From positions 1-64,000 of the forward strand of contig JAAOMT010000086.1 in NCBI GenBank assembly GCA_016748015.1: a stretch of DNA of 64,000 nt, in the 5' to 3' direction. This stretch comes from Geosiphon pyriformis uo1 (taxonomy: Eukaryota; Fungi; Glomeromycota). Positions 4,093 through 64,000 of the stretch are shown one piece after another; position 1 is the first letter of the stretch; the number at the start of each line of letters is the position of its first letter. The position numbers and the translations under genes were made by a program. The notes beneath the pieces are model-generated. The model was not told the DNA's origin. It saw only the letters and a program-made list of their open reading frames with translations, and searched no databases.

Positions 4093-4809
4093 TCATATAA
4101 TTGTTATTTAATAATTATTGTATTGTGCAATATTTCATTAATATGTTTATTAATCTTGAATAAAATTCGTTTTATTATTTTAAAATAAAAATAATTGTAA
4201 GTTTTAAAAATTAGAATTAATACTATTAAAATTGAAAAAAATCAAGCCAGTATTAAAATATATTTTTATTATTATTTTATATATTATATTTAACTTTAAA
4301 ACTTATTAAATAAAAGTTTATGTATTTTAATTTGTAAATAAAACAAATTTAATAATGTTATTTTTATGTATTAATTAAATATAATTTAATTAAAACTTAA
4401 AATATGTAACCAATTATTTATATTAAACTATATAAATTAAAAAAACCATTTGTTTTTATTTTATTTATATATTTAACAACTTTTTATTTAAATACTAATT
4501 TAATTTTTATTTTAAACATTATATATTTAAGTTTTAATAACTTTATATTTTACAAAATTTTTAATTAGTTATTTTTATTTTTATTATAGATTTTATAATT
4601 TTTAAGCAATAAAACAATAATATTAATAATATTTTTAATTTAAAAAAATTTTCAAATAAAACTATTTTTAAAAAAGTAAAAAAACAGTTTTTTAAAAAAA
4701 AATTCTGTTTTTATTATATTTTTATTAATACTTTACAAGACAATAATTTTTTTGTTTTAAACTTAATAATTATTATTAATAATACTATAATTAAAAAGAA
4801 TTGATAATA

Positions 4810-11376: not shown

Positions 11377-12250
11377 TGTTATGAGATAATTTTCTTGTTA
11401 TATTTAATTGCTGATATTTCATTTTAATTGCAATTAGTCTCTTGTGAGTTCCTCAATTCTATTTGTGTGATAATGTTACTGTTATACTAAAGGCTTTCTC
11501 TTTAATGTTGTGATGTAAGTTATTTCTCAATTTCTGATTGTTGTGTGTATTTATGTACTCCTTCTCAGAGGCTGAACTGAAATCTACCTACTGTTTGGGG
11601 TCTTCTCTGAGGCTATCCTTGCAATTGCCTGATGTGTTTTTTTAATCTAGAAACACGGAATATTAATGGCTTTTATCACTTTTTTTAATTCTCACAATAA
11701 AGCTTTTATCAATTAGTAACAACGTGAATAATCTTGATCAGAAATTATTCTTTCAAGGAATTCAACTGATGAATGATAGTTTCATTCAATAATTAACACA
11801 AGTGAGTTTCTTACTACTTTGGGGTTATTATAATTCAGTTTTAAATATTCTTTTTCATTTCTTTTTGATTTAAAAATTTTTTGGGATATTTAATTTAAAG
11901 ATACAATTTAAAGTAGAGTTTGTTGGATAAATTGGATCTATTGTTTGATAAGTTATGATTTTTATTACTTGATTGTCTTTTCTCAATATTAAAGCTACTG
12001 TATATATACATGTTTGTAGTTCTATGAGAAAACACATTATAATATTTTCTTTTTGATATTTCAACCTGGTGTTTGCTGCTATCATCAGTTGGTGTTGGCT
12101 GCTATTGTGAATTGGTGCTTGTCACTATTGTGAGATGGTGTTTGCTACTATGCTAATCATTACCTTTCTAAGATTATTACTGCACTATATTATGATTGAA
12201 TAGTTTATATTATTTTTATAATTTTTTTGCTAAATTCTTAAACCATAACA
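11377..12250 (-). repeat. 3' LTR of element A
   Basis: Colinear with 20162-21035; preceded on the minus strand by the PPT. Confidence 0.95.
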
Positions 12251-12266
12251 TTATCCCCTCTTTTCA
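12251..12266 (-). promoter_or_regulatory. Polypurine tract of element A
   Basis: Minus strand gaaaagaggggataa directly abutting the LTR TGTTA. Confidence 0.85.
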
Positions 12267-12900
12267 AGATTGAGCTCCATCAAAATTGAAATTAATTTCT
12301 TTATTAAATTCTAAGTTACTATAGTAGTTCAATACTGTGTTATTAATTTGTTGTTGTAATTCTTGAAATTGCAAGTTGGTAAGTCGTCCAATACTGTTGG
12401 TTGTTATTATATTCATAGTTGGGTCCAACAATAGTTTGTGACAGTTTTCAAATGCTTTAAAAATTCTGTAAACTGTTTTTAAATGGAATGTAGTGTTGGT
12501 TTTTCTAATGAAAGGTTCTAATAGTTGGATAGTTGTTTTGTCAAACACTCTAGTTGAGTCTTTTGAGTATAATATTTGTATGTTCAAATGCTTTTCTAAT
12601 TGATAATAACAGTAGTTAATTGGAAATTTCATTTTCAAGTTGCTAAATGTGTCTGGTGTTAATTTACTTATTTCTATTTCTTCTATTATTAATGTATTGT
12701 CCAATGCTATCTCTAATTTTTCAATAACTTTGCTGATAAATTTGTTGTTATGTTTGGTAATATTATATGGTTCAAAATTATGTTTTTTTCTTGTTTTTGG
12801 ATTTTCTATTGTTCTTTTTATGTATGTTATTTTGGAGTTATTAACTGTGATTTCCAGATTGGATTTTAATTGTTGTAATCTTTCGACTAATTGTTAAGTT
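12264..12900 (-). CDS. ORF3 of element A (unknown soluble protein between IN and PPT)
   Basis: Frame of track ORF 12264..12704 stays open upstream to about 12895; homologous to the same position in elements B, C and D. Confidence 0.7.
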
Positions 12901-12988: not shown

Positions 12989-14368
12989 TTATCTTTTTGA
13001 ATAATGTTCAATTAAAACTATTAGTTCTAAATCTTGTGGAATTTGTTCTGGTAGAATTAAAGATAATTGTGTTCCAATTTTGAATGTCTTTATTATTATT
13101 ACTGATTTACTGTAATAGAATTTTAGCTGGTTACCATGTGCTGCTTTTCTTAATATTTTATCATTTAGTCTTAGCTTGTATGCTTTATTTCCAAGTATTT
13201 TGTGAATATAAAATAGTCTATCCCACTTGTGATCAAATTTTCCACTCCATTGTTTTTCCATTTTTGTACAATGCAACAATACTTTATCTCTAATTTTGTA
13301 GCTAATTATATTATCTGGTAACTGGTTATTATGTCTCACTTTTTGTTGTTCTTGTGATTGTTCAATATTTTGTGCTGCTTTTCTTCTTTTGTTTTCTAAA
13401 ATTTCTATTAATTTGTATGTTCTTCTAAGTAGTATTTCCTGGAATGTTGTTTCAGTGATAGTGTTACTTGGATAAATTGGAATAGTAAGTTCAACTGGTA
13501 ATATGGCTTTTCTTCTATAAACTAGTTCAAATGGTCTGAATTGTATAGTATCTTGTTTTACTGTTTTATATGCTAGTAGTACTGCTGGTATAAACAAATT
13601 CCATTCTTTTTTATGTTTATTACTAATTTTTGCCAGTGATTCACATAATTTGTGATTAAATCTTTCAACTAATCCATTTGTTTGTGGGTGGTATGGTGAT
13701 GACAGTGGTTGCTTGATTCCAAATTTTTGGCTAAGTTCTTTTAAGGTGCTATTTACGAAGTATGTGCCTTGATCTGATAGCAATTTTTGTAGACATCCAT
13801 GCTGGCAAATTAAGTCTTTATGTACGAATTGAGCTATGGAAATAGCATCAGCTGTTTTAATAGCTCTAACTTCTGGCCATTTGGTAAGATAGTCCAAAGC
13901 TATTGCAATATAATAGTTGTTTTTTGTTGTTATAAGTAAGGGTCCAACTAAATCAATTCCAATTCTGTCAAATGGCTGTCCAACTTTTATTGGTCTTAAT
14001 AATTCTGTTGTTTTTGCTCCTTCTTTTCATTGGTATGGGTCACAATTTTTTATGTATTAAATTATGTCTGAACTTATTTTTGGCCAATAGTAATGGCTAG
14101 TTGCATATTAAATGGTTGTTGTTTTTCTAAAGTGGCCTAAATAAATATCTGAGTGCATGTTAAATAAGATAGTTTCTTTTTTATCCATGGTTATAACTCT
14201 TAATGGATTATCTGGATTTTGTTGATTCTAGTAATAAAGTATGTGATTTTGAATGAAATCATGTTTTGCTAATTTTTGGAGCTTAATTAGCTTTTTTACT
14301 AGCATTTTTTTGTCTATTTGTAGTGTTTTCAAGCATTGGTTAAGGTTTTTGTAAAGATGGTTATTCAT
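12989..14368 (-). pseudogene. Stand-alone integrase ORF of element A
   Basis: ATG at 14368, in frame with ORF 12989..13897. Motifs: GHF, FDRIGIDLVGPL, DYLTKWPE, LLSDQGTYF, YHPQTNGLVERFN, GPY/F-like C-terminus. A few premature stops. Confidence 0.85.
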
Positions 14369-14397
14369 TGTTGTTATGGCAAGTGGGTTGGTAATTT

Positions 14398-17300
14398 CTA
14401 TGTGTGTTTTATTCTTGACAAATAGTCAGCATTAGCATTTTTGGTATCTTCTTTGTATTTGATAATATAATTGTATGGTACTAATATTTGTGACCATCTG
14501 GTGTATTTTTTTTTTAGCACTTTCTTGTTATTTAATCAAACCAGACCTTTATGATCTGTGATAATTTCAAAGGGTTGGTACTGTAAATATGTGTTAAAGT
14601 GAACACAACTCCAGACTACTGGTAAGCATTCAAGTTTGTGTGCTGCATAGTTTTGTTTTGTCATACTGAGACTTCTGCTGGTATAAACAATTACATGCTC
14701 TCTTCTATTATCATCTTTTTGTGACAAAATGGCTCCAAGTCCAGTTCCAAAGGCATCTGTGGCCAAAATAAATTTCTTATTAAAATTCGAATAGATTATT
14801 ATTAGTGATTCAATAAGCTTTTGTCTAAGGTACTCAAAAGCTTTTTGTTGTGCTTTAGTCTATTCAAATTTCACATTTTTGGATAGTAGGTAATTAAAGG
14901 GTTTGGCAATGTTTGAAAAGTTTTCTACAAAGCAGTGGTAGTAAGATGCAAGTCCTAAAAAGCTTCTAACTTCTGAAACGTTTTGAGATACTAGAAAATT
15001 TTTCACTTTGTTTATTTTTAATAAATCTGGTTTTATTCCATCTTTTCCAACTACGTGTCCTAAAAATGCTAGCTTATTATTCCCAAAGAAACATTTTTTT
15101 AAATTAAGTTTAAGTCCAGTATATTTTAATCTCTCAAAAACTTGTTGTAAATATTGGAGATGATCTGCGAATTTTGGTGAAAAAACATTTGTATTGTCCA
15201 AGTAGACAACAATGAATTGCCACAGAATTCTGGAGTAAATTACATCCATTAGTCTTTGGAATATTGCAGGAGCATTTGTCAATTCAAATGGCATTACATT
15301 GAACTTATAATTGCTATTTTGTGTTTTGAATGCTGTTTTATGCCTGTTTTTTGGGTCCATTTCTACTTGCCAGTACCCACTGGTCAAGTTCAGTATAGAA
15401 AACCATTTTGCTTCTCCAAAAATGTTGAAAATTTTGTTAATTAATAGTATTGGGTATGAGTCTTTAGTTGTTTTGCTGTTTAGTTTGCAATAGTCGATGT
15501 AAAATCTAATTTTTCCGTTCTTTTTCCTTACTAAAACAACTGGTAAGAACCATGGGCTTATTGATAGTTGAATTATTCTTTTTTTCAACATGCTTTGGAC
15601 TTTTTCTCTGATAAAATTATGCTCCATTGATGGGACACGGTAAGCCCATTGTTTTTCAGATCTGGTGTTTCCAGTGGGGATTTGATGTTGAATGAAGTTG
15701 GTTCTTCCAAATTTGCCATTTTATGAAAATATATCAGAGTATCTTAAAATTAATGCTTTTAATTGTCACTGTTGGTCAGAATCCATTGTTCTAATGTTTA
15801 ATTTGGCCAATTCTTCTGGCATAAATTGATAGCATTCTAATGATTGTTGCCAATTTATTGAAGTGAGTTCACAGTAGAGGGCAATTTCTGGGAAATTTAG
15901 AATTTTTTGTGGTATTGATGTGTTTTCCAGCTCTATTTCAAGGTATCCAATGATAGTATCTTCCAGAATATAGATGAGTTCTTCTGTGGTGTTTGCGATA
16001 GAAATTTTTATCTATTGAGCTTTATCAGCTGAAATAAAAAGGTTAGTAAGTCCTATGAAAAACTGTTGACAAGTTTTTGGGTAGGGCTCAAATATTAGGT
16101 TTTTTTTTTTAATTGTTCTTTTTATTCTTATTTCTGATTTTCCATATGGTAGGAGCATAATGAACTGTTCAGTTTTAATTACTTTGCCTTTTTTCTCTAT
16201 TTTTTCAGTGAAATTCACTTCAATTCCTTTTTTTGTCGATCCGAAACCAAAAGTTCCTCTCGTTGTTTGTAACAATTCCTCATGATTTTCCACTGGCATG
16301 AATTTCCCAATTTTTACCAATGGTAGGAAAATTGCTTGTGCAATCTTTTCCTTAGATTCAATGGTATAAGGCTTTTCTGAATTGTTCTGTAGCAAAACCA
16401 TCAAATTTCCAGTGTATTCAGAATCAATTACTTCTCCTTGAATGCTTATTCCTTTTTTTGCGAAACTTGATCACAACACTATTTGAACCATTATTCCTGG
16501 CAAAATTTTAACCACTATTTTTAGGTTGATTTTGGTAATGCTCCTGGATAGTAACGTTGTGGATTGGTCTTCCAGATAACATAGATCGAATCCGGCATCA
16601 GTTGGATGGGCTTTTTCAGGTATTATTCCTAAGTGACTATTGTTAAAGTATCAGATGTCAATCACCTGTTCTAGGTTGGTATAGGCTACAAATTTTTCTG
16701 ACTCGGAACTGTCAGGTGAGTCTTGTTGATTTATTGATTGATTTTGAGACTGCTGATTCTCAATTTCCAATTTTTTTCTAAGTTCTTTTCATTTTGACAC
16801 TCTTTACAGCACTGATTTTGGCATAGGATAAAACAGTTTTCGCAGAGGTAAGTGTTGATTTAGACAAGGTATTGTTCTTGTTCTTGTCGAGTGAGGCATA
16901 GTTGTTGGTAGTAGTCCTGAAATTCATTCACTGGGTCGAACATGTTGTAGCTGACAACTTTGTCAGCTACTTTGGCTGACTCTTTCCAACTTTGTATTTT
17001 TTTGGCAGTTTTTCCTCTTACTTTGGCTTGTGCGGTGTTATACAACTCATTCTTGTCGTGTGAATAGTGCTGTAATCTTTTTAATGCTCTGTTGAATGCT
17101 GCTTCAAATGGCATTTCTCCTCTTATCTAGTTACAGATAAGGATTGTGTATTGGCAAGTTATATCACACATTCTTCCTCTGCCTGATATGTCATTCCAGT
17201 TGCACCCTCTTGGTAATAGTTCTCTATAAGCGAGGCACGGTTCCTCATCCCATTTTCCATGTCTTTCTGGATAACCATATTTTTTTTTTTTACAATAGTT

Positions 17301-20090
17301 GCAATAGTAGTGGGTGAAGTTTCTTGGGTCTTTGTCTGGTGCACTGCACGCAGTCATAGATGAGAGTTTCTTCTTGCAAACTGAACATTCTAGCTTTGGT
17401 TTGCGTTGCTGGTGGTTTCTTCATAAACTTACCTGGTTCCATTTGGATCTTTGTTTGCTAGTCCATGTTAGTACAGCTAGTAGTCCTGTTCTTTGGTCAT
17501 CAATCCAAGAGAGCTGATAGGTTTTGATGACTGGTAGTACTGAATTTTTTTCAAATTCAAAGGTAGGTCTTTGGTTGGTGCTGGGTTTTTGGAAGTGGCT
17601 ACAGGTGGCCAGAATTCTGGCCTGGTGGCCATTATAATTGATCAAAAGCTCTTGAGTAGTCTAGTCTAGAATGGCATTGGCTTTTGTTAACCAGTCATTC
17701 CCTATTAATGCTTGATATTATATAGTGTTTATTACTAATACTTTTGTAGGTATTACTATGTCATTAACTTCAAAAGGAAATGAGTTGATTTCACCATGAG
17801 ACAGTTTTGTACTTCCATTGGCTGTTATAATTTGAGACATTACAGCACAATCAACTTTAAAACCCAGTTGGTTTACTAGTTGAAGCATTATGATGCTTCT
17901 AGTGGATCCACTATCTAAGATAAGTTTGATTGGAGTATTTTTTATAGTGGCTTCCGTATACATAGCAATAATTGGGCATTTTTTGTCCAATGCTGCTCCA
18001 CTAAACATAGCCTCATTTTCCTCTAATTCAAAAGAAAAAATAGCTACAAGACTGTTATCTTTGGTGGCAACTGCTGGTGGTATTGTTTGGCTCAATTTGT
18101 TAAAGGAATTTTCGGTTCTGTTTATGTTTCTACTGTTAGTGTTTTTGATGATCAGATTTTCCAGTATATTAAGGTAAGTTTGTTGATAATTTTGGTAGTT
18201 TGAATTGGTTTGCTAACTGGTTCCGGCGCGGTTTGAATTTCTCTGAACCAATGTATTCTGGTTCTATATAGGCTGATTTTGGGGCTCAGGATGCCAATTC
18301 AGGTTGGCTATCATGGGCTGTTGCTGGTAAGTTCCTTGATTTTGATATGTGGTGAGATATTGGTGTGATAGTGGCGTGTACTGGTTTCTAAACATTTGGG
18401 ATGACACATAATAATTATTTTTACGTGCTTTCTGCATTATTTGCATTCAATATTGACTAATCAAATGTCCTATGCATTTGCAAAAATGGCAGGCACGTGT
18501 TTCTGTTCTGAATTTTTGGCACGATGAGCAATTATTTCAACTGTTGCTGACTTTCTGGCTGCATCTTTGGGGTGGTTGGTATGTATTTCTTCTTGGATCC
18601 AGGATAAAGTAACTTTCTATTTTCTTAGAGAGTTCTTTCCATAATTGCATTACTCTTTTCTCTAACATTTTTGTCTTATTTTTCTTCATTACTATGTTAA
18701 CTATTTGACTATGATTAGCTTCTTTCTCAGCCAATTCAAAAGCTTTGGTGAGCATTATGGCTTCTGGTAAGAAATTAGGATGGGCAGAGCATACTCTTCC
18801 TAAAATGCTGCTTTTTAATTCTTTAATAAACTGATTTAAAACCTAAGGATCAGTGTAGTATTCTTGTTCAATCACTTTAATCTGATGGTGAATTTGATTG
18901 AATCGAGCAAGATATTGGGTGACAGTTTCACCAGTACCTTGCTTGATAGTATTGAATTCGTTTTGTAGTTGAATTATGGTGTTTGGGTCACTAAAATACT
19001 CCAGGAGTGCATTTTTAAATTCAGTGAAGCTTGTGGGTTTTGTTTCCAGACTTTGATACCATGAGTCGGCTGTGTCTTTCAAAAAGAAAGGTAATGTTTG
19101 AATTGCTCTTTGGTCATTTCAGTTATTTGCCTAAATGGCTTTTTTTGCTTCTCTGAGCCATGTGTACATGTCCATTTCTTCTTTTTCTCCTGAGAAATCT
19201 GTTAGTTTTGCAATATATAATGTGGCCATTTCGTCGCTATTTTCTACTAGTAGACTTATAAGTCTAAGAGGAGGTGGGATAATATTTCCTTGAGCATTCC
19301 TAAAAATGGCTTTTCTTATATTTGGTTTTTTCACTTGATCATGAGTTTCTTGGTTTCTGGACTGGCTGCTTGTTCCAGTGACTGGTCTCTTTTTTGGATT
19401 CCAATTCAGACTCCTCTTCACGGTTTTCAAATCCCATTCCAAATTTTGGCTGAAAAAAAGAGTTTTGGAATAGCAATGAATATTTTTCTGTAATTGGTAT
19501 GTTTCTCTAGTTATATTGTTTAATTTTATCAGTATAACTAAGAGTTCTTGGCATTTGTGAAGTTGATGTTGATGATAATGCAGCTCCTAATAGAATTTGT
19601 ATCTTATTTTCTGGTGAAAAATGGTATGATTTATTTTCTGGTGAATAAATACATTGTTTCTTTATTGATTGAGTAACAGTTTTCTTTGGTGTTTGAGCAG
19701 GTGTTCATAGTTTTTGCTGGTTACTTTCCTGATTAGTGTTTAAATTTTTTTTGGTTTTGTTGGTGCATTCCCTAGTGTTTCCTGTGAATATTGGAAAATT
19801 TTTGTTGGCGTATTGCTCAATTTTTCAATGGATTTTGATAATAGTTGTGACTATTACTTCTACTTCCTTTGTATTATGATAATTCTCTATACAATCCAAG
19901 TTTTGCATGTGTGGTTCTTCTTTCTTTTCTATATGATAATTTATTCTGGCGTTAATATAATAAGTGAGGGCAGATTCTACTGGACAACACTTTTCTGGTA
20001 ATTTAAGATCACTTTGATGTTGTGTGTAAATAGCATGGCAGAATTCAAGAACAGTAAGATTAGGAGTTTTTGTCGCCACTTTTGTCTTTT
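14398..20090 (-). pseudogene. Gag-PR-Cys-rich-dUTPase-RT-RNase H polyprotein of element A
   Basis: Capsid-like region 19240-18700, CCHC about 18500, LILDSGS about 17915, dUTPase 16660-16235, RT ORF 14860..15627, RNase H ORF 14536..14766 (ATDA..GLGAILSQ); ends NADYLSRIKHT* at 14398. Confidence 0.85.
16235..16660 (-). pseudogene. dUTPase domain in element A
   Basis: Motifs DAGFDL, SSFAKKG, VIDSEYTG, KIAQAIF and RGTFGFGST. Confidence 0.9.
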
Positions 20091-20161: not shown

Positions 20162-21035
20162 TGTTACAGAATAATTTTCTTGTTATATTTAATTGCTAAT
20201 ATCTCATTTTAATTGCAATTAGTCTCTTGTGAGTTCCTCAATTCTATTTGTGTGATAATGTTACTGTTATACTGAAGGCTTTCTCTTTAATGTTGTGATG
20301 TAAGTTATTTCTCAATTCCTAATTGTTGTGTGTGTTTATGTACTCCTTCTCAGAAGCTGAACTGAAATCTACCCACTGTTTGGGGTCTTCTCTGAAGCTA
20401 TCCTTGTAATTGCCTAATGTGTTTCTCTAATCTAGAAACACGAAATATTAATGGCCTTTATCACTTTTCTTAATTTTCACAATAAAGCTTTTATCAATTA
20501 GTAACAACATGAATAATCTTGATTAGAGATTATTCTTCCAAGAAATTCAACTGATGAATGATAGTTTTATTCAATAATTAACACAAGTGAGTTTTTTACT
20601 ACTTTGGGGTTGTGATAATTCAGTTTTAAATATTCTTTTTCAATTTTTTTTAATTTAAAAGTTTCTTGAGATATTTAATTTAAAGGTACAATTTAAAGTG
20701 GAGTTTGTTGGATAAATTGGATCTATTGCTTGATAAGTTATGATTTTTATTATTTGATTGTCTTTTCTCAATATTAAAACTATTATATATATACATGTTT
20801 GTAGTTTTATAAAAAAACACATTGTAATACTTTCTTTTTGATATTTCAACCTGGTGTTTGCTGCTATCACCAGTTGGTGTTGGCTGCTATTGTGAACTGG
20901 TGCTTGCCACTATCACGAGATAGTGTTTGCTACTATGTTAATCATTATCTTTCTAAGATTATTACTGCACTATATTATGATTGAATAGTTTATATTATTT
21001 TTATGATTCTTTTGCTAAATTCTTAAACCATAACA
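20162..21035 (-). repeat. 5' LTR of element A
   Basis: Colinear with 11377-12250, same length. Confidence 0.95.
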
Positions 21036-21959: not shown

Positions 21960-24900
21960 TCTAACTTCTACAATTATCTGCTTTTATATATTTTTTTGGT
22001 TTTACAAGATTGCTTTCCATTGTTTTGCTATTGCCAGCTATTGCTTTGCTATTTCTGTTATTGCTTTATTTTTCTATGTTATCTTTAGTTATCTTATGTT
22101 ATAATATGTTATTTGATATTATTACATGTTATTCTGTGTTATCTTATGTTATAATGTATTATTCTGCACTATTATATGCTATTTTGTGTTATATTACATT
22201 TTTTTTTTGGTTATATTTCTTTATAACTTTGGATTGGTTTTCTATTCAGATAATATTATCTCTCACTTTTTAGAATTGAGTTTCTGCAAAATTATATGTA
22301 TTTGATATAATAACTTCATTTATGTAGTGTTCAATTGTTGTGTTAAGTATTGTTTTTTATAGGTTCTCAAACCATTGATTAGTTATTCATTCTATGTTGT
22401 TAATTGTTATGGTTTTTATAGATCTATACACCAGTATATTTGGACAATGTTGGAAAGCAATGTACAATTAGTATGCTGTTTTATAATATAACATCAAGTT
22501 GCTTCTTTCTATGAATTTTTCTACTTGTTGTATTGCTTTTTTGTTGAATGTTTTCTGGCTGAGGTCTTCATATAGTGTTTTCAAGTCAAGCTGTTCTCCA
22601 ATTTTGTAGAACCAATAAGTTAACAAAAGTTTTTTTTTTTATTTTTGAGTGTTGTCTGGTGTCCATCCCCCTGTTTTGGGGAGATTGGTTTTTTGAGCTA
22701 AAGTCTTTTTGATTTCTTTGAGCTTGGAGACCAAGTATCTTTTTTTATAAAATACTTCTTGTTCCTTCACTCTTTCTCTTTCATGTCCTGTCTGAAAGGA
22801 AGCTTTTTGCCAATTTTTTTTTTTGGATATTGTGAAAAGATAAGAATGGTTAGTTTCAATTAAACTTTCTTCTTTCTTGCTTCTGTCTTTGTATTGTATT
22901 TCTTTTTTATTAATTGTGATTTTTATTTGAGCATTGGATTGTTAAATCATGTCAAATAGTTGTTTTGAGAGTTGTAGAATTTAATCTGAAAGCTTCATGT
23001 TGGAAGTTTTATTAACTTATTTTTTTTTGTTGTTTCAGTAGTTATATATACTTAAATTTTTTCAGTTAAATAGTTGTGTATTAATTTTATGTTTTGATGA
23101 TGATGATTGGTTCTAAATCTCATGATATATTTTCTGGTCTGATTAATAGAATTTGTGTTTCTAGTTGATGCATAGATGACAATAACTGTTGTTTTGTATA
23201 ATAAATTTTTAATTAGTTTCCATAAGCTACTTTCTTTAAAATCTTGTTTTCTAATCGTAATTTGTAAGCTCTATTTTCTAACACTTCTTGTATATAAAAT
23301 AGACCATCACACTTTGGGTTAAACTTTTTACTTCATTGTTTTTTAGCTTTTATATGATGTAATAGTACTTGGTCTCAATCTTGAATTCCATTGGTTGCTT
23401 AGATAAACAGTTATCATATCTTTTTTTCTGTTGTTCTTGAGTATTACTAATATTGTTAGCTGCTGTTTTACAATTGCCTTCTAATGTTTCTATTAACTGG
23501 TATGTTTTTTGGTATAAGGTAGCTTCAAAATTTCTTTCTGTAATCATTTCAGTTGAGTATGACTGTATTTTTTGTTCAATAGATAACATTGCTTTTTTTT
23601 CATAAACTAGTTCAAATAATATAAACTGAGTCATATTTTGCTTTAATGTTCAGTATGCTAGTAATACAGAAGATATGAATAAGTCCCATTCTTGTGTGTT
23701 TTCATAGCTTATTTTCACTAATACTTTACACAATGTTCAGTTAAATCATTCAACTAGTCCATTTGTTTACAGATAATATGATAACAAAAAGGATCACTTT
23801 ATTCCAAACTGTTGGCTTAATTCAGTCAGTGTACTATTAACAAAATACATTCCTTGGTCAGATAGCAATTTTTTCAGACATCTATGTCTACAAATCAGGT
23901 TTTGGTGTACAAACTCAGCTACTGTTTTAGCATCTGCTACTTGGATGGCTCTGGCTTTTAGCCATTTTGTTAAGTAGTCTATGACTACAATAATGTATTG
24001 ATTTCTCTTAGATGTTATAGAGAAAGAACCAACCAAATTGATCTCAATTCTATCAAATGAATTTCCAATTGGAATGGATTGAAGTGGTTCTGTTATTTTG
24101 GCTTTTTCTCTTTTTTGGCATGAATTATAATTAAAAATATACTCGAAAATATTCTTATATATTGTTGGCCAATAATATATGTTTATTGTTCTTTCTAAGG
24201 TAGTGTCTTTATTAAAGTGTCTTGCAGTTGGGTCTAAGTATATGCTATATAGAATAGTGTTCTTTTTACTGTCTTTTATAACTTGCTGTGGAGTGATGTG
24301 GTTTTGTTATTCTCGATGGTATAGTTGATTGTTTTAAATAAAGTAGTTTCATGCTTGTTTTCATATAGTATTTTGTTCCTGTTAAGATAATATTTCTTGG
24401 AACTAAAGTGTTGATAAGTACTGCTGTATTTACTAATAAGGGATTGTGTTTATGATTTTGAATTAGATTTGTGGCATTCTCAACAAACTGTTGGTATTGG
24501 TATTCTTTAATTCTTTTTTGTAGTAAACTTTGAGTGAGAATTGTTGTAGATAAGTACCCCATCTTACATATTTTCTTTTTAATTGTGAATTATTGAATAA
24601 CCAAATAAGTTCTTTGTAGTCGGTATATAAGTCAAATAGTTGACTAAGATAATGTTTCCAAGCTGTATGGCCCAATAAATAGTGAGACATTTTAAATCTA
24701 TTGTACTATATATCTTTTCTGTGGAGTTAGTGCTGTGACTGGTGTAAACAATTGGATGTTCTCTTTTGTCCAGTCCTATTTACAATAAGTCAGCTCCTAA
24801 TGCATTTTTCAAGGCATCTGTAGCAACAATAGAATGTTTAGTGAAATTGAAATAAATTAATATAGGAGAGGTAATCAGTCACTGCTTGAGATAGTCAAAT

Positions 24901-30971: not shown

Positions 30972-31069
30972 TTTGGTGCTCTCTTACAGAAACAACACAG
31001 CAAAAACAATTTCAAAGTGGTGACTACACCAGACACAACAACTCTAGAGTATTATCAGTCAATCTACGC

Positions 31070-34900: not shown

Positions 34901-37900
34901 AAGAAGCTAAATACATTGAGTATACTATGAAATTAGCTGGATTTGATTATAAAAATGAAATAGAAACCTACCACCAAATTACAAGTCATACATACCCAAC
35001 CAAAGAAGCTTAAATTCAATGATTAAAGTAAATAAACATTCAATTATGTGAAGAATGTGTTATGTCTTGTGATGATCAATGGTGTTTAGAATGCTATGCT
35101 TTTAGCATTCCCCTGCCATACAAAAATGATAAAAATAAAATCGAATTTAAAGTATCTGAACTGGTAAAAAAACTACCAATCACTCCTATCTATCTTCTTA
35201 AAAATCAACTATCTTTACAACTCAAATATTTTAACAACTATGGCCAAAGAATCAGATCAGAAAAAACACACGAGATTAATGCTAGATATGATCTAAGATA
35301 CCCAGAAAAAAATACTTTCATTCTCTAACCAAAGTCTGACAAAAATCAATCTAAAAATCACTTTTAAAATTCCACCTAAAGCAATAGTTTAAATTGCATC
35401 TAGATCATTATTGGCAAGCAAAGAAATCAATGTTAGAGAAGGAATCATAAATGCAAAATATACTGGAAACATTATCATTATATTGCAAAATGAAACAGAC
35501 AAACCATTTAGGATTGAACATGCTGGAAAAATTGCCCAAGCAATTTACCTATTCTTAATCAACATTTCGGGTTTACAATCAGTTAACAACAGAGAACAAT
35601 TGGAAAAAAGTAAAAGAGGAATACAAGGTTTTGGTTTAACTGAACGATTTACAGTACCAGTAAACATAGCTCTCAATGTACAGATTAAATCTTACCAGAT
35701 TCTTCAACTTCTCCAACCAATTACCATTTCACTTTTTGGAAAACATCAAAAAATTTACACTTGCTCAAAACCCACCACCATTCAACAAATCTTTGAATCC
35801 AATGAACATATTTGTTTAAAACATGAAATCTCAATCCCAAATGTTTATATTCCCAAAGGAATGAAAAAATTTTGAGTTATATTCTACAATTTTAATAATT
35901 ATCCTATTGTCTTATTGAACAAATTAGAGATTGGAATCATACACAGTAATATCTTTCAAGATAAAAACCCTCAAATTGTTTTTAATTTTATCGAAATTAT
36001 AAAACATATATTACTTTCAAATCTGAACATTATTTCTACTACTGAAAACTACTACTTTTTGGAAGAAAAACTTTTTTAAATTAACATGGATCTCTTAGAA
36101 CCCTAACAACAAAGACAATTGAAACAACTAATAGCTGAATATGCAGATATATTTGCAAAAAACAACAATGACTTTGGAAAAACTGATATTGTTCAATATC
36201 AGATCCATACAGGAGATGCTTCACCAAAATGCCAATCAGCCTATCAAGTTCCACCTGCTAGCCACCAATTTATCAGAGAAGAGATCCAAAGAATGCTCAA
36301 TAACGGATTGATTCAACCATCAAGAAGTTCTTAGGCCTCACCAGTAGTCCTTATTAAAAAAAAAAACAGAAAAATCAGATTCTGTGTAGATTATCATTAG
36401 CTTAACAGTGTAACAATTAGAAATGTCTACCCTCTTTCAAGAAGTAATAACGTGCTAGATGCCTTAGGAAAAGCCAAGTTCTTCTTAACTTTAAATTTGG
36501 AAAGTGGATACTGACAAGTCGAAATGGACCCAAAACAGCATTTACCACCCAAAGAGGGAACTATAAGTTCAATGTTATGCCTTTTGGACTCTCTAATACA
36601 CCAGCAACATTCCAATAACTTATGGATGTTGTATATAAAAAACTCTTGTGGCAATTAGTAGTTGTTTATTTTGATGACACTAATGTGTATTCCTCAAGCT
36701 TTAAAGCTTATTTCATTCATCTGCAAAAAATTTTTCAACAATTATAGAAAGCAGGATTAAAATTGAACATTGAGAAATATCACTTTGGAAAAACAAGTTT
36801 AATTTTTTTTGAACATATTATTAGCAAAGATAGAGTCAAACCAAATTTTAGAACAATCAGTGCTGTCAAAAACTTTTAAACCTCCAAAAATACCACAGAA
36901 CTATTAAAATTTGTAAGATTAACTTCTTACTATTAAAAATTCATAAAAAAATTTTCAAAAATTGCCAAACCACTTAATTATCTCATCAACAAAAACGTGT
37001 TATATTAATAGACTGAAGAACAACAAAAAGCTTTTGAAATCCTCAAAACAAAATTGACAACAGCCTCAGTTCTTGTTTATCCAGACTTTAACAAATGGTT
37101 CCAACTAGCCACTGATGTCTCACATATAGCATTTGGTGCCATTTTATCACAATTAAATAAAAATTGCCAAAAACAAATCATTGCCTATACCAGTAGAACA
37201 CTTAAGCTAACAGAACTCAAATATGGCTCAACTGAATTAAAAGCTGCTACTGTCATTTGGACTATTAAACATTTTCAACAATATTTGAAAAATAAAAAAG
37301 AATTTAACATTATAACTGACAATATTGGCCTCAAATAGCTCAATAAAAAAAAACCAAACAAAGTACCAAACAGTCTTAATAGAATGATTTTCTAGCAGAC
37401 TACAAATATATTGTATATTACAAACCAGAAAAACTACACATCAATGTTGATAGCCTCTCAAGAATAAGACAAAATTAACACTATCAACAAACTCACTACA
37501 ACTTACCAACTTACTAACAAAATAACAAAACAACAATAGATCCCAGAAATTACAACAATCTTAAAAACTATTTGAACACTTTTACCATACCAAAAAATTG
37601 GTCTCCAAGTAAAAAACATTAATTACAACACCAATTCAAACAATATTTCATACACCACAACAAAATCTATTACAAAAATTGCAGAAATCCAAACCAACTA
37701 CTCAGATTAATACAGGAAAATGAAAATAAAACAATTCTATACAACATGCACACAGATTCTTCTTCAGCACACTTGAGAAGAAATAGAACAATTCAAAGAA
37801 CTCTTGAACATTATTTTTGGTCTCATATGCAAAAAGACATTCAACAATATATAGAATTTTGTGATAGTTGTTAAAGAAGAAGAGAAACTCGTCCCACAAA

Positions 37901-39756
37901 ACCTTTAAATCCAATCAAAGTTGAACAATCTTTTGACAAAGTTAGAATTGATTTAATTAGACCATTACCTATTACAACCCAAGGAAATTGTTATATTGCA
38001 GTTGCAGTAGATTATCTCACCAAATGACCTGAAGTTAAAGCTATCCAAAAAGCAGATGCAAAATCAATAACAAATTTTATCTATAAAGACATTATTTGTA
38101 AACATGAATGCCTAATTGAACTTTTATCTGATCAAGAAACACATTTTGTGAACAACTTGATACAAGAAATTTGTGAATGATTCAATGTCAAAAGATCTCT
38201 ATCTTCACCCTATCACCCCTAAACAAATAGACTTATAGAACATTTCAACAAAACATTGTGTAAATCTTTAGCCAAAGTCTCAACAAATTTTGAGCAAGAA
38301 TAAGATATCTTTATTCCATTAGTGTTACTAGTATACAGAACACTAAAACAAAATACTACAAAACATATACCATTTGATCTTACTTATGAAAAAACAGCAA
38401 CATTACCAATTAATTTTACAGTGGAAACTTACCTAGTACAACCAATCAATAAAGAAATTTTTCAAGAAACATTCTAAAGAAGAGCTTATACTCTTCTTAG
38501 TATATTGGAGGGAAAGAGACACATAGCAGCCACTTATATTGAACACTTTCAAGCCCTATAAAAAGAAAAACATGACAACAAACTGCCACCAATGACCAAC
38601 AAATTTAAAGTTGGAAATAAAGTTCTCTTATACAAAATTAAGGCTGAAAAACAATGGAGTGGAAAATTTGAACATAAATAGGATAAACCATTTTATATTC
38701 ACGAAATTCTAGGCAATGGATTATAAAAATTAAGACTTGATGACAAAGTACTAGTAAAAGTTGCACATAGAGATTAATTAAAACACTATCACTTCAAAAA
38801 CAATCCTGAATTATTAATTCCACAAATTAATACACATTTTTCTTTAATTAATTCTGAAAATATTCCCCGAAATTTAGAACCAATAATTATAATAGAACAA
38901 CAACCAAACATGAACACTTAATTTAACAGAATTTTACAATAATTTTTTTAATAACACAAAAACAAAAATAGTAAAAAAATTACAAAAAACACCCAAACCC
39001 AAAAACAAATAAAACCCCATATCTAAAAATAATTTTCTTTATTCTTTTTATTAATTAACTATTTTATTATGATTATTCCCCAAAATATTCAACAAATATC
39101 TCAAAAATTAATATTAACTTTGAAAACACTTTCTGACTTATTCATAATAATTAATGGAAGTCAAATTAATTACATTCAGAAAGAAACCACAGCCCCAGTA
39201 GCAAATAATTCTCAGAATTATCACTCCTATAAAAAAAAAACAAGAAGTTACTCTGGAAATCAATTACCAGAACTTTTGAAGCAAGCACTAAAAGAAAACT
39301 TTTTATTTGCTCCTATTGACAGTCCATCAAATATCACAATACAACAGAAACTTTTACTATTCCTTAATAAACAGAACAATAAACATACTCTTATATATAG
39401 ATATTTTCATATTGGAAAAACATTTTATGAACAAAAACTGGAACTTGAAACAACCAACATCACTCTTAAGACTATATAAAAACAAATTCACAATAAATTC
39501 AAAACAGCAGCTAGACCAACAAATATTCGCTACAAACTTAGAGCAGCATTTAGACTCTATGATTTATTCAATACTTGTGAAAACGTCCTACAAAACCCAA
39601 TACTCTACACAATAAAGATTCAATATATTAGAAAGCTCACAGAACTGAAATTTCAACAATTTTCAGACCAAATCATTTCAATTATTTTGGATTACTATCT
39701 TGACATTACAGATAGTGTTTGGACTTTGACAGAACTTAATTTTAAGAAGAAGATTA

Positions 39757-40715
39757 TGTTATCAGTAGAATTTTAGCTATTAATTAGCATGAAATTATTC
39801 TCATAATTCCTATTATTAATTATTATTTCGATTATCACTTATTATTTAATCAAATTATCAAATATCATTACTCAATCAATAATTCGATTTGTACTATAGA
39901 AATTAAGATAATCAAATTACACAATACCCAGAACCATTTAACATAGCCAAAATTCGCCGAAATTAATGAAAATTGGCCGAAATAATCAATAGTTTAGTGA
40001 AATAATTTGTAGTTTGCCAAAATATATCTTTAATTCACCCAAATTGTAGCAAAAAGAAAAGTACAAGTTCAAAGACTAGTACTACAACAAGTTGTATAAA
40101 AAAAGAGCTTCTCTCTTCAAGAAAATGTATTTTTTCATAGTATTTTATTATAGTATCTTACTTTAAATATCTTAATTACAACAAATTATCTTTTACAAAT
40201 CAAATAAAAATTAAAAGTTCAAAAACCAAATCTTTAAAATTATTACACTTAAAATTCCATCAATACAACTAACATTTTGAAATTGATTAACTACCAATTT
40301 CAGTAATCTGTTAATGACTTCAGGTCTGGATAGAAAATGTTTTCCTTAATATGATTCTATTTTTTTTACATTTCTTTTATTTTTCCTTTTTTTTTCTTAT
40401 TATAATTATTAGGATAGCCTATAGACAAAATTTTTGTAAAAGAGTTGACTTTTACAGCAAAATAACTACACAATTTTAGTGAGCTTCCAGATGAGCAATT
40501 CTTGAAAAAGAGTTGACATTTACTACAATATAACTACATAAAATAACTGGCAAGAAATTGGCTATTGTACTTATAAGTCCAGCAGTTCAAATTATAGGAG
40601 ATAATTTGAAGATAAATTCAATTACTGGAGATCTAACTACTTTCTAAGAACATGAATTCACAGCAAATCAACATTAATAACATTCAAAAAAAGAGACCAA
40701 AAATCTCTGATAATA
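39757..40715 (+). repeat. 3' LTR of element C
   Basis: Homologous to 29983-30971, preceded by the purine tract aagaagaagatta. Confidence 0.9.
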
Positions 40716-45500: not shown

Positions 45501-48500
45501 TATTTCAAAAAAAGATAACACCTCTGGACAAACTCATGTAATACAACATACTATTACCACCAAAGAAACTTGTTCCATCCATTTAAAGCCTTATCAATCC
45601 AATCAACAAAATAATAAATTCATCAAAAAAAAAATAAACCAGATGAAAAATTTTGGATTTATACAAAAAACCAAAAGTAAATAGACTTTCTCAGTTGTAG
45701 TGGTATCCAAGAAAGGTGGAACTCTATGTTTCTGTGTCGACTACTACTAATTAAATGCCATCACTATAAGAGACATGTATCCACTCCCTAAAATTAATGC
45801 AATGCTAGATAAATTCAATAGTGCTGTTTTCTTTTCAATTATTGACTTAACTGCTGGATTTTGACAAGTAGAAATAGATCCAAAAAGCAGAAAAAAAACT
45901 GCTTTCATTACCAAGTATGGCACCTATAAATTCACAGTCATGCCTTTTGGTCTCACCAATATTTCTCCTATCTTTCAATGTCTAATAGACAAAGTATTTG
46001 AATTAGTAAAAGAAAACTTTGTTCTGGTCTACTTAGATAACATAATAGTATACTCAAAAATCTATGATAAACATCTTGAACATTTGCAAAAAGTTTTTGA
46101 CCTGCTCAGAAATGCTGGTCTTAAGATTAATCCAATCAAATTTTTCTTTGGACATCAATTCACCCAGTTTCTTGGTTATCTTATTACAAAAAACGGAATC
46201 TTTCCTAACCCAGCTAAAATTAAAAAAGTTCAAAACATTAAACAACCAATAAACGTTTTTGAACTATGCTTTTTCCTTAGTTTGGCTTTCTACTATTGCA
46301 AATTTATCAAAAATCTTTCTAAAATCGCCTTTTCTCTCAATCAGCTACTCAGAAAAAATGTCAATTATTACTGGAACACTTATTAACAAAAAGCTTTTGA
46401 AATTTTGAAAAAAAAAGTTGTTACTGAACCAATTCTTAAACAATCTAATCTGAACCAATTTTTTATTCTCTATACTGATACATCTGGCTATAAACTTGGT
46501 GCTGTTCTCTTACAAAAAAATAAAAACAGCAGAGAAAATGCTATAGCATATGCCAATAGATCCCTCATACCAACAAAAAAGAACTATTCAATAACTAAAC
46601 AAGAATACTTAGCAGTAGTTTGGGCTACTAGTTACTGAGATCAATATTTTCTTAATGTAAAATTTTTAATGGTAACAGATTATCAAGCCTTGGTTTGGCT
46701 GCACAATAAAAAGAAGCTGAAACACAAATAAATAACTCACTAAATACTTCACTTGAATGAATTCAACTATGATATTCAATACCACAAAAAAACAAATCAT
46801 CAAAATGCCAATGTTTTTTCTAGACTTATCATCCAATAATAGTACAAGCTTCTCAAACCAAACCAACTTAATTATTAATAACTCTCCTTTTAACAAACAC
46901 AATAATAAACTTAGACAACTACTCTGCTTTAATAGAATTTTTAGGTAAAAGACAATACCTATCAGAATACACTAAACAACAAAGAGAACATTTGTGCAAA
47001 CAATCAAATTTTTATTTGATCTGCTAGAACCAAATATATAAAAAAACAGAAAAAATCCTGACTGTCCTTAAAGAGTCATCAGGTTTAAAAAAAAAGAAAT
47101 TGTGATCTACAACATGTACACTAATTTATTAGCTGGACATTTTAGAAAACAAAAACAATTCAAAAAACTTTAATTCACTATTATTGGCCTACCTTAGGAA
47201 AAAACATTGTTGAATACATTAAAATATGTAACATTTGCTAAAAAAAAAACAAATCCAATTACAAAAAAGATATCCATCCAATCTCTGTTGGTCAACCATT
47301 TAACAGAATTGGTATAGATGTTGTTGGATCTTTAACAATAACTCCTAATGGCAACAGATATGTTATCACAGCTACTGATTATCTTATAAAATAAATAGAA
47401 ACAAGAGCTACTCCAAACCAAACAGCAGTTTTAATAGCCAATTTTATTTATGAAAATATTATCTACTATTATGGCTGCCTTAAAAAACTTTTATCTGATA
47501 AAAGAAGAGCTTTTCTTAGTACACTAGTTCAAAAACTTTGTAGAAAAATGGGAATATGTCATAAATTTTTTTTTTTTACCACTCCTAAACAAATGATCTA
47601 ATAGAATGTTTCAATAGAACACTATGTAAAACTCTAGCCAAAACCAGTAAAAAAACAAACTTATAGGACAAAGTACTGCCTTCAGCTTTGTTTGCTTATA
47701 GAACTATAAATCATAACATTACAAGTTATGAACCTTTTTATTTGCTCTATGGATACATGACAACAGTACCAATAGAAACTGACATTGAAACAATACTCTT
47801 TGAAAAAATTACAATAAAAAATTATAAAAACATTTTGTAAATAAAACTTAGTACTAGTCGTGACTTCTTAATAAAAGCACAAATAGTTGCTTTTGAAAAG
47901 ATAAAACAGTTTCAAGAAAAGCTTAAAAAGAAAAAAATCTATAAAACACTTTTTTTAAATATTGGAGACTTGATATTAGAATATTGTTTAGACAAAAACA
48001 ATGTCTATAGTAATAAATTTTCTAACCAGTAAAATAAACTCTTTTTAGTCAATAAAGTTTTAAACAATGGTTTTTATATTCTTCAAGATCAATTCAAAAC
48101 AATCTTTAATAATTATTTTGTTTATGGTACATGATTTAAGAAATATTATAAACAACTTGATTGATTGTCTGTTGTGATAATACCAACCCAAATGATCAGT
48201 TAAAATCAAGTATAAATAAATGCATCATTCTCAAAACAGAGGTATTTTCAATTAATATAAACAATTATTTTCTAGATTAAAACATTCAAAACACCTTCTA
48301 TACTTTCTATGAGTATTGAATTAAAAACTATCCAAATGCTATTCTGACTATTGGAAAACAAATCACTATAACTAATAACAGTAAAACACATACTGTTATT
48401 AGACCAAAGAAAACTACTATCAGAAAAGAAAAAATTGGTAGCAAAATAGATAAATATCTATTAGAAAGTATAACAGCAGCTATATTCTCACTTTCTAGCA

Positions 48501-49549
48501 CAATTGAAAAAACAATCCAAAAAATCTTGTTCATAGACAAAAATTTGTCATATGGAAGACAATTAGAACTCTATGATCACATTAGAAAAATTATAAAAGA
48601 TATGAAACTCATGAAGAAAACAACTTCAGAAATACAAACAGAAATTTTGGGCATTATATAATTAGATGTCTTAAGAGTTTTAACTATTGCTAAAAGAACC
48701 AAAACTCTAATACAAAGATTTGATTTTTTAGATACAAAACTTATTTTGTCTCAAGTATTATATATTCTATTCACAAAAGATTTCAACAAACTAGTTAGCT
48801 TTGAGTTAGATAAAACTCTTCAAATAGATTATATCATGAATAGCTTAATTTTGCCAGAGCTCAATTTCTTTGGAAAAAATGATATTATTGTTGAAATCTA
48901 TACTTTTTATTAATTATTATATGTATTAGCCACTGATGTCATATAATTAACCACTCTATTTTTAAATAGTGATCATTAAACTAATTATTGACCTAGTTGT
49001 TGACTTGATTATTGACCACTTTTAATAGCTATATAAGTGATAAATCTTTTAGCTATAGAAAAACATGTAAGAATCAAAGAAAGAAAAAAAATAAAATAAC
49101 AACTTCATTTTAATTCTGTTTTTATTACTAAATTTTTTTTCCTTACTTTCAAGTATCTGAACATTTTAGAATAAAAAATTACTTGTTGGCATTTATTTAC
49201 TCTTTTATTAACTTGTATAATTGTAGTATTTGAAGATTATTAAATAAAATGTGACTAAAAAATACATTTAATATCTAATATTGAATTCTAAGAATGCTGA
49301 CATGAGACATAGAATTATACCAGTGTGTGATCATTTGTTGACAGTATAAACTATTCTTTTATCTTTAGATTCTTTGGTTATCTATTAAAAAAATATAACA
49401 ACTGAGATATTTTATGAAACTAATCTCATATATTGAATTTAAACTCATTTAATTTGCTCTTTGATATTGAATTTCCTTCGATTTTTTTTATCACCCTACA
49501 ATTCTATTCTCTCTTGCTATTTATTAGCTTGTTATTCCAACCCATAACA
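42510..49549 (+). mobile_element. LTR retrotransposon D (related lineage without dUTPase)
   Basis: 5' LTR remnant ending at 42567 plus PBS TGGTGCTTCC (42574); gag CCHC about 43955; PR about 44645; RT 45530-46400 (VYLDN); RH ends 46839; IN about 46905-48203; ORF3 about 48220-48880; 3' LTR about 48883-49549 with the same ...attagcttgtta..aacccataaca end. Confidence 0.85.
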
Positions 49550-52500: not shown

Positions 52501-54885
52501 CCATGAAATCATTTGTCAAGAAATCAACAAAATGTTGAACAATAAGTTAATTCAATCATCAATAAATCTATAGTTATTATTAGCAGTATTTGTTCAAAAA
52601 AAATAGAAAGATCTACATTTGTGTAAATTACAGAAAGCTCAATAGTATTACTCATGAAAACAGTTATTTAACTCCATGAATCCAGAAATTATTTGATGCT
52701 TTTGAAGGAAAAAAATAGTTTTCAATATTAGATTTAAATAGTAATTACTGGCAAATAGTAATAAATCTAGCAGATAAAAAAAAATGCTATTTACTATTAG
52801 AGAAAAGAATTTTGAATTCAATATTATGCCATTTGGCTTAACCAATGCTTTAGCCATCTTTTAATAACTAATAAAAATTGTTTACACTAAATTATTATAA
52901 AAATTAGTAGTAGTTTATTTGAATAACATTAATGTATTTTCCGTAACATTTAATAATCATTATTATTATCTTTAACAAGTGTTTGAAAAATTAAGAAGAG
53001 CAAAACTAAAGTTGAATACTACCAAGTGTTTCTTTAAAAAAACAAAGCTCAAGTTTTTGGAATATTTCATAAGCAAAAATAGTATCAAAATGGATTCAGA
53101 TAAAATTGAAATCATTAAAAACTTCTTAGTACTAACAAACTTAATAAAACTAAGAGCATTTTTGGAATTTGCTGGATATTATTACTGTTTTATTCAAAAT
53201 TTCTCCAAATTGGCTCAACTACTTTACTAACTTCAAGCTAAGAACATTAAATACAAATAGACCGAAATTCAACAAAAAGCTTTTGCTATCTTAAGAAGAA
53301 AGCTTATTTAAGCCCTAGTATTAATTTATTCAGATTATAGCAAACCATTTATCATTATTACCAATGTATTAGGCCAAGCATTAAGAGCAGTGCTGTTGCA
53401 AAAAAAATCAGATAGATAAAAGCATTCAGTAATATATGCCAGTTGAAGTTTAAGTTTAGTTAAAAAGAACTATAAAACATTAACACTAAAATATTTAGCT
53501 ATTTATTAGACTGTCATAAAATAAAAAAAATACTTAAGTTAGAAGTTTGATGTGTACACTAATTATAAGGAATTGATATCAATTCAAAAGCAAAAATTAT
53601 CATACAAAATAGAAAATAGAACTTTTACTATTTAATTATACAGTATATCATAAAAAGAGAAAAAAACAGAAATACTAATGATTTATCACAAATAAAACAA
53701 ATTTAAAACATTTTAACTCAAAAATATAACAAAAAATAAACACACAAAAATATCAACAATTTCAACATTATATTAATACTTAATAGTTTAAGGAAACATT
53801 AACTTAAAAAAAACAAAACCACATAAAATAACAATCAAAATATTTTATCACTTACTAAAATATACTATATTAAAAAAACAAAAAAGATTCAGATTAACAA
53901 TTCAAAGTAATTAAAAATTAGAAAAAGAAACAATATTGTTCAATATGTACTTAAATCTAATAGCAGAATATTTTTATAAAGAAGCAATCATAAAAAGAAC
54001 CAGAAAAAGATATTATTAAACATTTATGTATTTAAATATCATCCAATATTTTTAAAGTTGTGATACTTGTCAAGAAAAAGAAGAAAAAAAATCTAGTGGA
54101 CCATTAAGACCAATCAAAATAAGTTAATCATTTGATTAAATTGGAATTGATTTAGTTAAATCATTAACAATAATCAACAAAAGCAACTAATATATAATAG
54201 TAGCTATTAACTATCTTATAAAATAGCCAGAAATTAAAACAATTTAAAAAGCAGATGCAAAATTTATTGCTAAATTCATACATTAAAATTTGATTTATTG
54301 ACACAAATGTCTAAAAAAATTGTTATCAGACCAAGATATTCACTTTATAAACAAAACATTAGCAGAATTAAATTAGAAATTTGGATTTAAAAAATCATTA
54401 TTATTATTATATTATTTACAAACCAATGGCTTAGTTAAAAAATTCAACAAAATATTGTGTAAAGTAATAGCCAAGATCAATTAAAAAAATCAAGACAAAT
54501 AAAATTTGTTCATATTATTGGTATTATTTGCTTATTAAACAATAAAACAAGATATTACACAAGCAATACCATTTGAACTAGTTTATAGTAGAACTGCAGT
54601 ATTACCAGTGAAAATAGAAGTTAATACATATTCAGTAAAACCAATAACAAAAGCAATTTTTAAGAAACATTACTAAAAAAAACATATGACTTAATAGAAA
54701 CTCTAAAAAACAAGAAACAAAAAACAGCTAATAATATACAAAAAAAACAAAAAAAATAACATGATAACCAGCCAAATTCAGGATTGAAGACAAAGTACTT
54801 TTATATTATATTAAAACAGAAACATAATAGAATAGAAAGTTTGATCCCAAATAAGATAATTTATTTCACATTGAAAATATGCTAA
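49550..54885 (+). mobile_element. LTR retrotransposon E internal region (5'-truncated, heavily mutated)
   Basis: PR LILDSG about 50040; Cys-rich 50620-51260; dUTPase 51470-51890; RT 52430-53300; RH ends 53706; IN 53736 to about 54880. Confidence 0.85.
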
Positions 54886-63585: not shown

Positions 63586-64000
63586 ATTCTATTAAATAAA
63601 TGATGTTATATTATCATATAATATTTTTAGTCATGAAAATATTGGTTTGCTTTACTGTAATTTTACTAGAATTAGCAGAATTTAAACTAAATCTAACACT
63701 TAAAATAACTCATATTGATAATAAAAAGTTATGAATTATTAGATATCACAAGTATGATTATAAATATAGGAATTCTTTAATTACCAAATTAGTAGATTCA
63801 AAATGCTATGGTTTATTACAGATTACGAATTATCTTAATATGAATTATCTTAGGTTTGACTATATGTCTAAATTTTTATTTTCAAGAATATGTAAAAAAA
63901 ACATTTTTTAAACAGACAAAAATTCTTAAAGCAAATATTAATACAAAAATATCAACTTTTTTATTTCTTTATTTATTTTTTTTGATTTGGATAATTATTA

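Follow-up and report, generated by a model that had tools for sequence, protein, structure and literature searches.

LTR retrotransposons of the fungus Geosiphon pyriformis carry a third gene, ORF3, between the integrase and the polypurine tract (PPT). The frame is homologous across three element families of the window (A, B and C) and the metagenomic element L001, is under purifying selection, and encodes a protein without a membrane helix. It follows an integrase that is itself set apart from RNase H by a stop. Since the integrase ORF is free-standing, ORF3 is literally the third gene of a three-gene element. In our best reading, to which we give a probability of about 40%, ORF3 encodes a separately transcribed nucleic-acid-binding factor that activates the element or protects it from silencing, acting in trans on its own family.

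The window, the whole 64,000-nt stretch that was analysed, is a cluster of nested and decayed LTR retrotransposons with 18-37% GC (Table 1). Element A is a full-length Ty3/gypsy element that encodes gag, protease, a Cys-rich domain, dUTPase, reverse transcriptase (RT), RNase H, integrase and ORF3 ahead of the PPT. It has TG...CA LTRs, a target duplication (ACAC), a PPT and the domain order PR-RT-RH-IN, and 54 of the 59 differences between its LTRs are transitions. A dUTPase between protease and RT has been described in fungal elements (PMC2864245, PMC6431247). The unnamed domain of about 310 aa between protease and dUTPase contains several CxxC pairs and is common to A, B, C and E at 30-35% identity; at this position, L001 has a shorter Cys/His-rich stretch that cannot be aligned with it. 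Element C (29966-40710) has LTRs of 83% identity and lies at the 5' end of B, oriented the other way; no clean target duplication was seen. Outside the LTR elements, the window holds a stop-free frame of 695 codons without a Pfam match (823-2907, minus strand) and a tandem array of units of about 57 nt (62928-63669).

Table 1. Features of elements A to F in the window and of the metagenomic element L001 (own contig numbering).
Element	Feature	Position	Strand	Remarks
A	5' LTR	20162..21035	-	874 nt; 93.6% identity to 3' LTR; ACAC precedes
A	gag and aspartic protease	17721..19586	-	CCHC knuckle decayed
A	Cys-rich unnamed domain	16782..17717	-	between protease and dUTPase
A	dUTPase domain	16015..16659	-	Pfam PF00692, E 7e-15
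A	RT and RNase H	14398..15717	-	frame closes at TAG 14400-14398
A	RNase H stop to integrase ATG	14368-14400	-
A	integrase, separate ORF	12989..14368	-	own ATG 14368; decayed, 5' part has stops
A	ORF3	12264..12893	-	209 stop-free codons; between integrase and PPT
A	RARCTYAAT	12269..12277	-	18 nt before 3' LTR; candidate cis signal
A	PPT	12251..12263	-	immediately 3' of ORF3 stop
A	3' LTR	11377..12250	-	874 nt; TGTTA...AACA; then target duplication ACAC
B	Cys-rich domain	26874-27830	-
B	RNase H stop to integrase start	24451..24465	-	stop 24465; decayed start ATA 24453
B	TATA site TATATATAA	23042..23050	-	52 nt upstream of ORF3 ATG
B	ORF3	22270..22998	-	242 codons, one frame, 6 internal stops
B	RARCTYAAT	22275-22283
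C	Cys-rich domain	34168-35094	+
C	RNase H stop to integrase start	37476..37538	+	stop 37476; decayed start ATA 37536
C	ORF3	39069..39776	+	235 codons, 1 internal stop; final 20 nt inside 3' LTR
C	RARCTYAAT	39732-39740
D	RNase H stop to integrase start	46837..46907	+	stop 46837; decayed start ATA 46905
D	TATAAA	48211..48216	+	46 nt upstream of ORF3 start
D	third ORF	48200-48913	+	3 internal stops; 48257..48913 is 218 codons from decayed Met
D	RARCTYAAT	48857-48865
E	Cys-rich domain	50247-51214	+
E	RNase H stop to integrase start	53704..53738	+	stop 53704; decayed start ATA 53736
F	3' end with cis motif and PPT	57708..57749	+	motif at 57718; rest of ORF3 deleted
F	RARCTYAAT	57718-57726
L001	RNase H stop to integrase start	2001-2045
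L001	RARCTYAAT	4207-4215

An earlier note on this DNA described homologous ORFs of about 220 aa in A, B and C, and this is borne out: local alignment gives z scores of 23.2 for A-B, 13.2 for A-C and 11.8 for B-C, and none of the 1000 shuffles made for each pair reaches the observed score. The frame in A contains the peptides quoted in the note; this copy is decayed and lacks the initiator Met and the first 13 residues seen in database relatives (P0003). A Y-x-x-[LI]-G-[KE] motif, said to lie upstream in all copies, does occur in all four families (A to D), but it has decayed in the window copies of A (YYQLEK) and D (YDHIRK).

The third ORF of D, which had been described as a more distant homologue, matches ORF3 in position, but the sequence comparisons do not establish the relationship. 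The window copies give z 4.9 for C-D (0 of 1000 shuffles), 0.8 for A-D and 1.7 for B-D. With intact relatives, profile-profile comparison yields a probability of 0.25% (P 0.24), HMM searches in both directions are not significant, and z exceeds 3 in 3 of 18 pairs. Homology is favored by the position and length of the ORF, by the Y-x-x-L-G-E motif and the N-terminal NIQ found in its relatives, and by a DNA motif shared ahead of the PPT; we consider it about two-in-three likely, though unproven.

ORF3 of A, B and C is under purifying selection. Neutral decay was simulated because protein-guided alignment biases dN/dS-type values. Conservation at codon position 2 exceeds that at position 3 by 0.17-0.23; in simulations at matching protein identity (60 runs each), this gap has means of 0.006-0.042 and maxima of 0.11-0.19, and at slightly lower identity its mean in the control climbs to 0.16. 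In-frame stops number 0, 6 and 1 in A, B and C where 7.5-16 would be expected, and the six in B are comparable to the decay of its integrase (5) and RT (8). The dN/dS between families, proposed earlier as a check, is below 1: by NG86 it is 0.40-0.53 for the whole of ORF3, 0.29-0.38 for the core and 0.19-0.27 for the integrase, with synonymous sites near saturation. The codon-position gap and the few stops exceed the neutral control, but raw pN/pS (0.65-0.71) overlaps it (0.72-0.84, sd up to 0.10). The codon-position pattern taken without a control was rejected as evidence, since D, of unproven homology, shows the same pattern.

All named relatives of the ORF3 protein are Geosiphon gene models, the best matches of A being 82-90% identical. 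Geosiphon accounts for all 120 matches listed of 179 and, in another search, for 34 of 35, the remaining one being L001's own protein. Among the matches listed, at least 8 copies are of the A type, at least 41 of the C type and at least 74 of the D type (123 classified); 27 of the B type were classified by eye. Copies of ORF3 thus make up well over a hundred "hypothetical" Geosiphon gene models (at least 123 classified, and 27 more), so that orphan-gene counts for this fungus are inflated. The idea of a widespread Glomeromycotina family gained no support: no other member of that group, and no fungus besides Geosiphon, is among the matches listed, in searches that depend on shared short words. 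Many "hypothetical protein" models (P0003-P0008, P0023, P0047, P0109 and P0151-P0174) fuse ORF3 with sequence from the LTR or the integrase, and P0151 joins a C-type to a B-type ORF3. These joins were set aside as prediction artefacts and not taken as evidence of splicing.

When metagenome contigs were scanned with the C-terminus of the integrase, one of 590 candidate stretches was confirmed, the element L001. This contig of 8,018 nt, with 47% GC and a terminal overlap of 139 nt, can be read as an intact LTR element that was assembled as a circle with its LTRs collapsed into one. Downstream of the integrase it has an uninterrupted ORF of 218 codons. A profile HMM built from A, B and C reaches the L001 protein with E 1.7e-5 as a single target (hhalign P 0.016; pairwise z 0.7-4.7), but the link to D is not significant either way; the D profile against L001 gives E 0.1. 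The L001 protein and a C protein also land in the same unnamed Atlas clusters. As the RT of L001 is only 35-39% identical to that of A to D, the presence of an ORF3 homologue in it indicates that the family predates the Geosiphon expansion. L001 and D both have a third ORF but no dUTPase match, so the link between ORF3 and dUTPase is loose. The gag of L001 has a long N-terminal extension, and its LTR contains GC-rich repeats of 76 nt (4421-4593), which are candidate binding sites for a trans-acting factor. With ORF3 itself as the query, a metagenome scan confirmed 0 of 298 candidates, and three scans of viral contigs gave no locus. A match in genome contigs (L002, E 3e-5) was dropped as chance, as it lies inside an unrelated bacterial ORF of 820 aa (204-2666), which we take to resemble a subtilisin-type peptidase.

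The earlier note missed that the integrase is split from pol. In the canonical Ty3/gypsy layout, the integrase is part of the RT-RNase H polyprotein, but in all six elements (A to E and L001) a stop closes pol right after RNase H, and the integrase has its own start 9-65 nt downstream. The RT-RNase H frame stops 3-4 codons past a conserved motif of the D-x-L-S-R-I type, and the integrase starts at the same residue in all six, five codons upstream of a conserved Tyr. The start codon is ATG in A and L001, with the common context CAACAATG, and ATA in the more decayed B, C, D and E; ATG to ATA is a G-to-A change, the dominant type in the window. The spacer is short and A/C-rich (29 nt in A and E, 9 in B, 57 in C, 65 in D and 41 in L001), and the integrase frame is offset from that of RNase H by 2 in A, D, E and L001 and by 0 in B and C, where indels in the decayed copies could alter the offsets. 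This variability argues against programmed frameshifting or read-through and for a separate start, while the long first ORF of L001, which has no other stop, argues that the split is not a product of decay. Separate translation of the integrase, by reinitiation past the spacer, is likely. The integrases of A and L001 have no Pfam match to a chromodomain. By eye, that of L001 has a stretch of about 40 residues with the pattern Y...YP...F...Y before the H2C2 finger, of which decayed forms are seen in A to E; E is truncated within the end of its integrase.

The ORF3 proteins are 218-244 aa long with at most one conserved Cys. Those of Geosiphon range from neutral to basic, at pI 7.1-9.7, and contain K/R clusters; that of L001 is acidic (pI 5.0). 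None of the four window copies, A to D, has a membrane helix, the highest 19-residue hydropathy being 1.02, 0.63, 1.39 and 1.54, and no hydrophobic N-terminal stretch is seen by eye. The earlier claims that there is no transmembrane helix and that ORF3 is not an Env agree with these values, and no Env match was found in Pfam or PDB sequences. Nor is ORF3 a chromodomain fused to the integrase: there is no Pfam match of any kind, and ORF3 is a frame apart from the integrase. PDB sequences gave 0 matches at E 10, and the best PHROGs matches were to unnamed families (E 0.006).

The predicted layout, at low confidence, is a helix, followed in the Geosiphon families by a β-hairpin, and then a linker that varies and a helical core that carries the motifs Y-x-x-[ILM]-G-[KE]-x-L, [KR]-[TA]-[AV]-x-R-x-[YF]-x-x-F and I-G-x-L-T...F-Q. 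The proposal of a helical accessory protein is upheld insofar as the protein is conserved, selected and predicted to be mostly helical, but the AlphaFold models (11 and 34 alignment rows) are unreliable, with pLDDT 48.5 and 42.2. In the suggested AlphaFold and Foldseek check, no fold match stands (best E 0.31 in the PDB and 0.056 among viral models), and VIA-align of the same unreliable models reaches at best Z 6.5, to generic bundles, with 0 of 48,161 chains at Z 8. Two of the core motifs presumably resemble those of DUF1016_N and DUF3102. The motifs fall in register with DUF1016_N (PF17761, 28 members; P 0.11) and DUF3102 (PF11300, 25 members; P 0.063), but the profile comparisons are not significant, the best being 5 of 300 shuffles; the two DUF profiles compared with each other give P 0.023. 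The ORF3 core HMM shows a slight excess on the 28 DUF1016_N members (best 8.7 bits, against a maximum of 3.8 in 280 shuffles), and the ORF3 profile has 0 matches in 401 bacterial genomes. The Atlas places the closterovirus coat family PF01785 (0.90-0.91, 134-139 shared features) and the translation repressor family PF01818 (0.89) near both queries, on 122-139 of 256 shared features where true members typically share 170. In the libraries searched, the ORF3 protein family is unnamed.

At the 3' end, the DNA motif RARCTYAAT precedes the LTR by 16-19 nt in four elements (A, B, C and F) and by 48 nt in L001, and in D it lies directly before the purine tract; the pattern was derived from these same copies and has 22 occurrences in the window, counting both strands. 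A and B share one codon phase for the motif, and C, D and L001 share another. Being kept in two reading frames, the motif is likely to be a cis-acting nucleic-acid signal. Such a signal ahead of the PPT would explain why element F keeps the "NFDGA tail": the tail is indeed present (83% over 42 nt), but a cis DNA signal explains it better than a protein remnant. Element F (55000-57750) is an internal deletion derivative, whose sequence passes from gag and protease straight to the cis motif and PPT at the 3' end.

ORF3 is probably made from its own internal promoter, as suggested by TATA boxes. TATAWA occurs upstream of the ORF3 start in three of five elements (34 nt in L001, 52 nt in B and 46 nt in D), and none is found within 60 nt upstream in A and C. 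The chance of three in five is about 0.007, given each element's own TATAWA density, although D may be unrelated. L001 has three TATAWA sites in 7,091 internal bases, and the one before ORF3 resembles the LTR's own box at 4636. This stretch of L001 is also rich in pyrimidines, contains AG dinucleotides and may instead act as a splice acceptor.

In the preferred reading, the ORF3 product would be a soluble, helical, putative nucleic-acid-binding regulator, transcribed from an internal promoter apart from gag, in an element whose integrase would be translated separately via reinitiation past the A/C-rich spacer. The protein would act in trans on element DNA, switching the element on or blocking its silencing. 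Expression apart from gag would fit a regulator better than a part of the particle, with foamy virus Tas as a precedent. Purifying selection, retention of ORF3 in the RT-divergent L001, the basic K/R clusters of the Geosiphon proteins, the weak likeness of the core to DUF1016_N and the transition-rich LTR differences, taken as host pressure, favor this reading; the acidic L001 protein, the absence of TATAWA in A and C, the possible splice acceptor in L001, the non-significant DUF profile comparisons and the unreliable models speak against it. An integrase that is not fused to Gag-Pol needs recruitment in trans, and ORF3 might instead be a particle-side adaptor that delivers it to the particle or the target site. 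Consistent with this, the split integrase and the third ORF co-occur in A, B, C, D and L001, ORF3 diverges in parallel with its family, and the integrases scanned lack a chromodomain match. We consider it rather unlikely: the link rests on elements that have both traits, with none having only one for comparison, and an internal promoter would uncouple the level of ORF3 from that of Gag.

No more probable is a role in RNA export or packaging, in which a spliced message would yield an RNA-binding factor similar to CERV of Cer1 (PMC10309623) or to Rev. The candidate acceptor upstream of the L001 ATG, the basic clusters and the proximity of two RNA-binding families, PF01785 and PF01818, in the Atlas would suit such a factor, but the shared features fall short of those of true members, no Pfam match was found and the splicing is putative. 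An Env-like or movement protein for spread among nuclei, hyphae or hosts would account for the env position of ORF3, but is very improbable for a protein of this length with so few conserved Cys, no membrane helix and no Env match in the Pfam and PDB sequences. The view that the frame arises as a side effect of A-rich non-coding sequence held by cis signals is largely refuted, with hardly any probability left: the final codons do overlap a DNA motif read in two frames, but protein homology of z 12-23 extends over about 190 codons with few stops, and L001 keeps an intact frame at 47% GC. The remaining probability falls to some other role for ORF3.

More broadly, these elements may form an old lineage with three genes: Gag-PR-RT-RH, a free-standing integrase, and a self-promoted gene of a new family, whose product would activate or shield the element or else carry its detached integrase. 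We hold this wider picture tentatively, at somewhat less than even odds. If true, it would represent a "complex" retroelement in fungi with a foamy-virus-like build reached by convergence, and a living model of integrase escape into Ginger-type transposases. LTR sequence makes up 41.2% of the Geosiphon genome (PMC11952901), and transposable elements of a related fungus are targets of methylation and small RNA (10.1101/2021.03.30.436303). A conserved accessory gene could explain how these elements manage to spread under host methylation. Making the integrase separately from Gag-Pol would go against the usual rule of particle entry, and the intact L001 makes the question directly testable.

The three-gene layout is new, in that no description of this ORF3 or of a separate integrase ORF was found in open-access full text; Repbase or supplements may hold such elements. 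Sense ORFs between pol and the 3' LTR that are conserved across copies, as ORF3 is, are a known kind, termed aORF-3S (PMC7264820). The aORF-3S share with ORF3 their position, orientation, many copies per family and lack of an assigned function, but the published examples often resemble Env, carry membrane helices and undergo splicing, whereas the present ORF3 encodes a soluble protein, belongs to fungal elements and comes after an integrase ORF that stands free. Among the ORF3s of LTR elements, which are typically spliced, the non-envelope ORF3s of bdelloids (PMC5408684) also come after pol, in dUTPase-bearing elements, and some are 210-230 aa long, but they are described as GDSL, DEDDy, coiled-coil or membrane proteins, and no match to any of these types was found here. 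The integrases may resemble, by eye against the published text, the YPYY-motif Gypsy integrases (Athila/Tat-related, Gypsy-1-I_RO and DGLT-A1) and Ginger1 transposases in their Y...YP...F...Y pattern, and the TGTTA termini and the 4-bp duplication of A add to the likeness; unlike here, the pertinent passages of that paper (PMC2836005) contain no LTR element in which a separate integrase ORF follows RNase H. The closest working model for ORF3 is the foamy virus Tas (PMC8670036, PMC13220597), a 3' accessory gene with an internal promoter that activates the LTR, although there is no sequence link, the present elements lack env, and promoter and activation are putative here. The VANC anti-silencing proteins of the VANDAL transposons (PMC10398659, PMC5735166) and CERV belong to other hosts and elements and are likened to ORF3 by role, not by sequence: they are accessory factors encoded by transposons, and each works in trans on the family it comes from.
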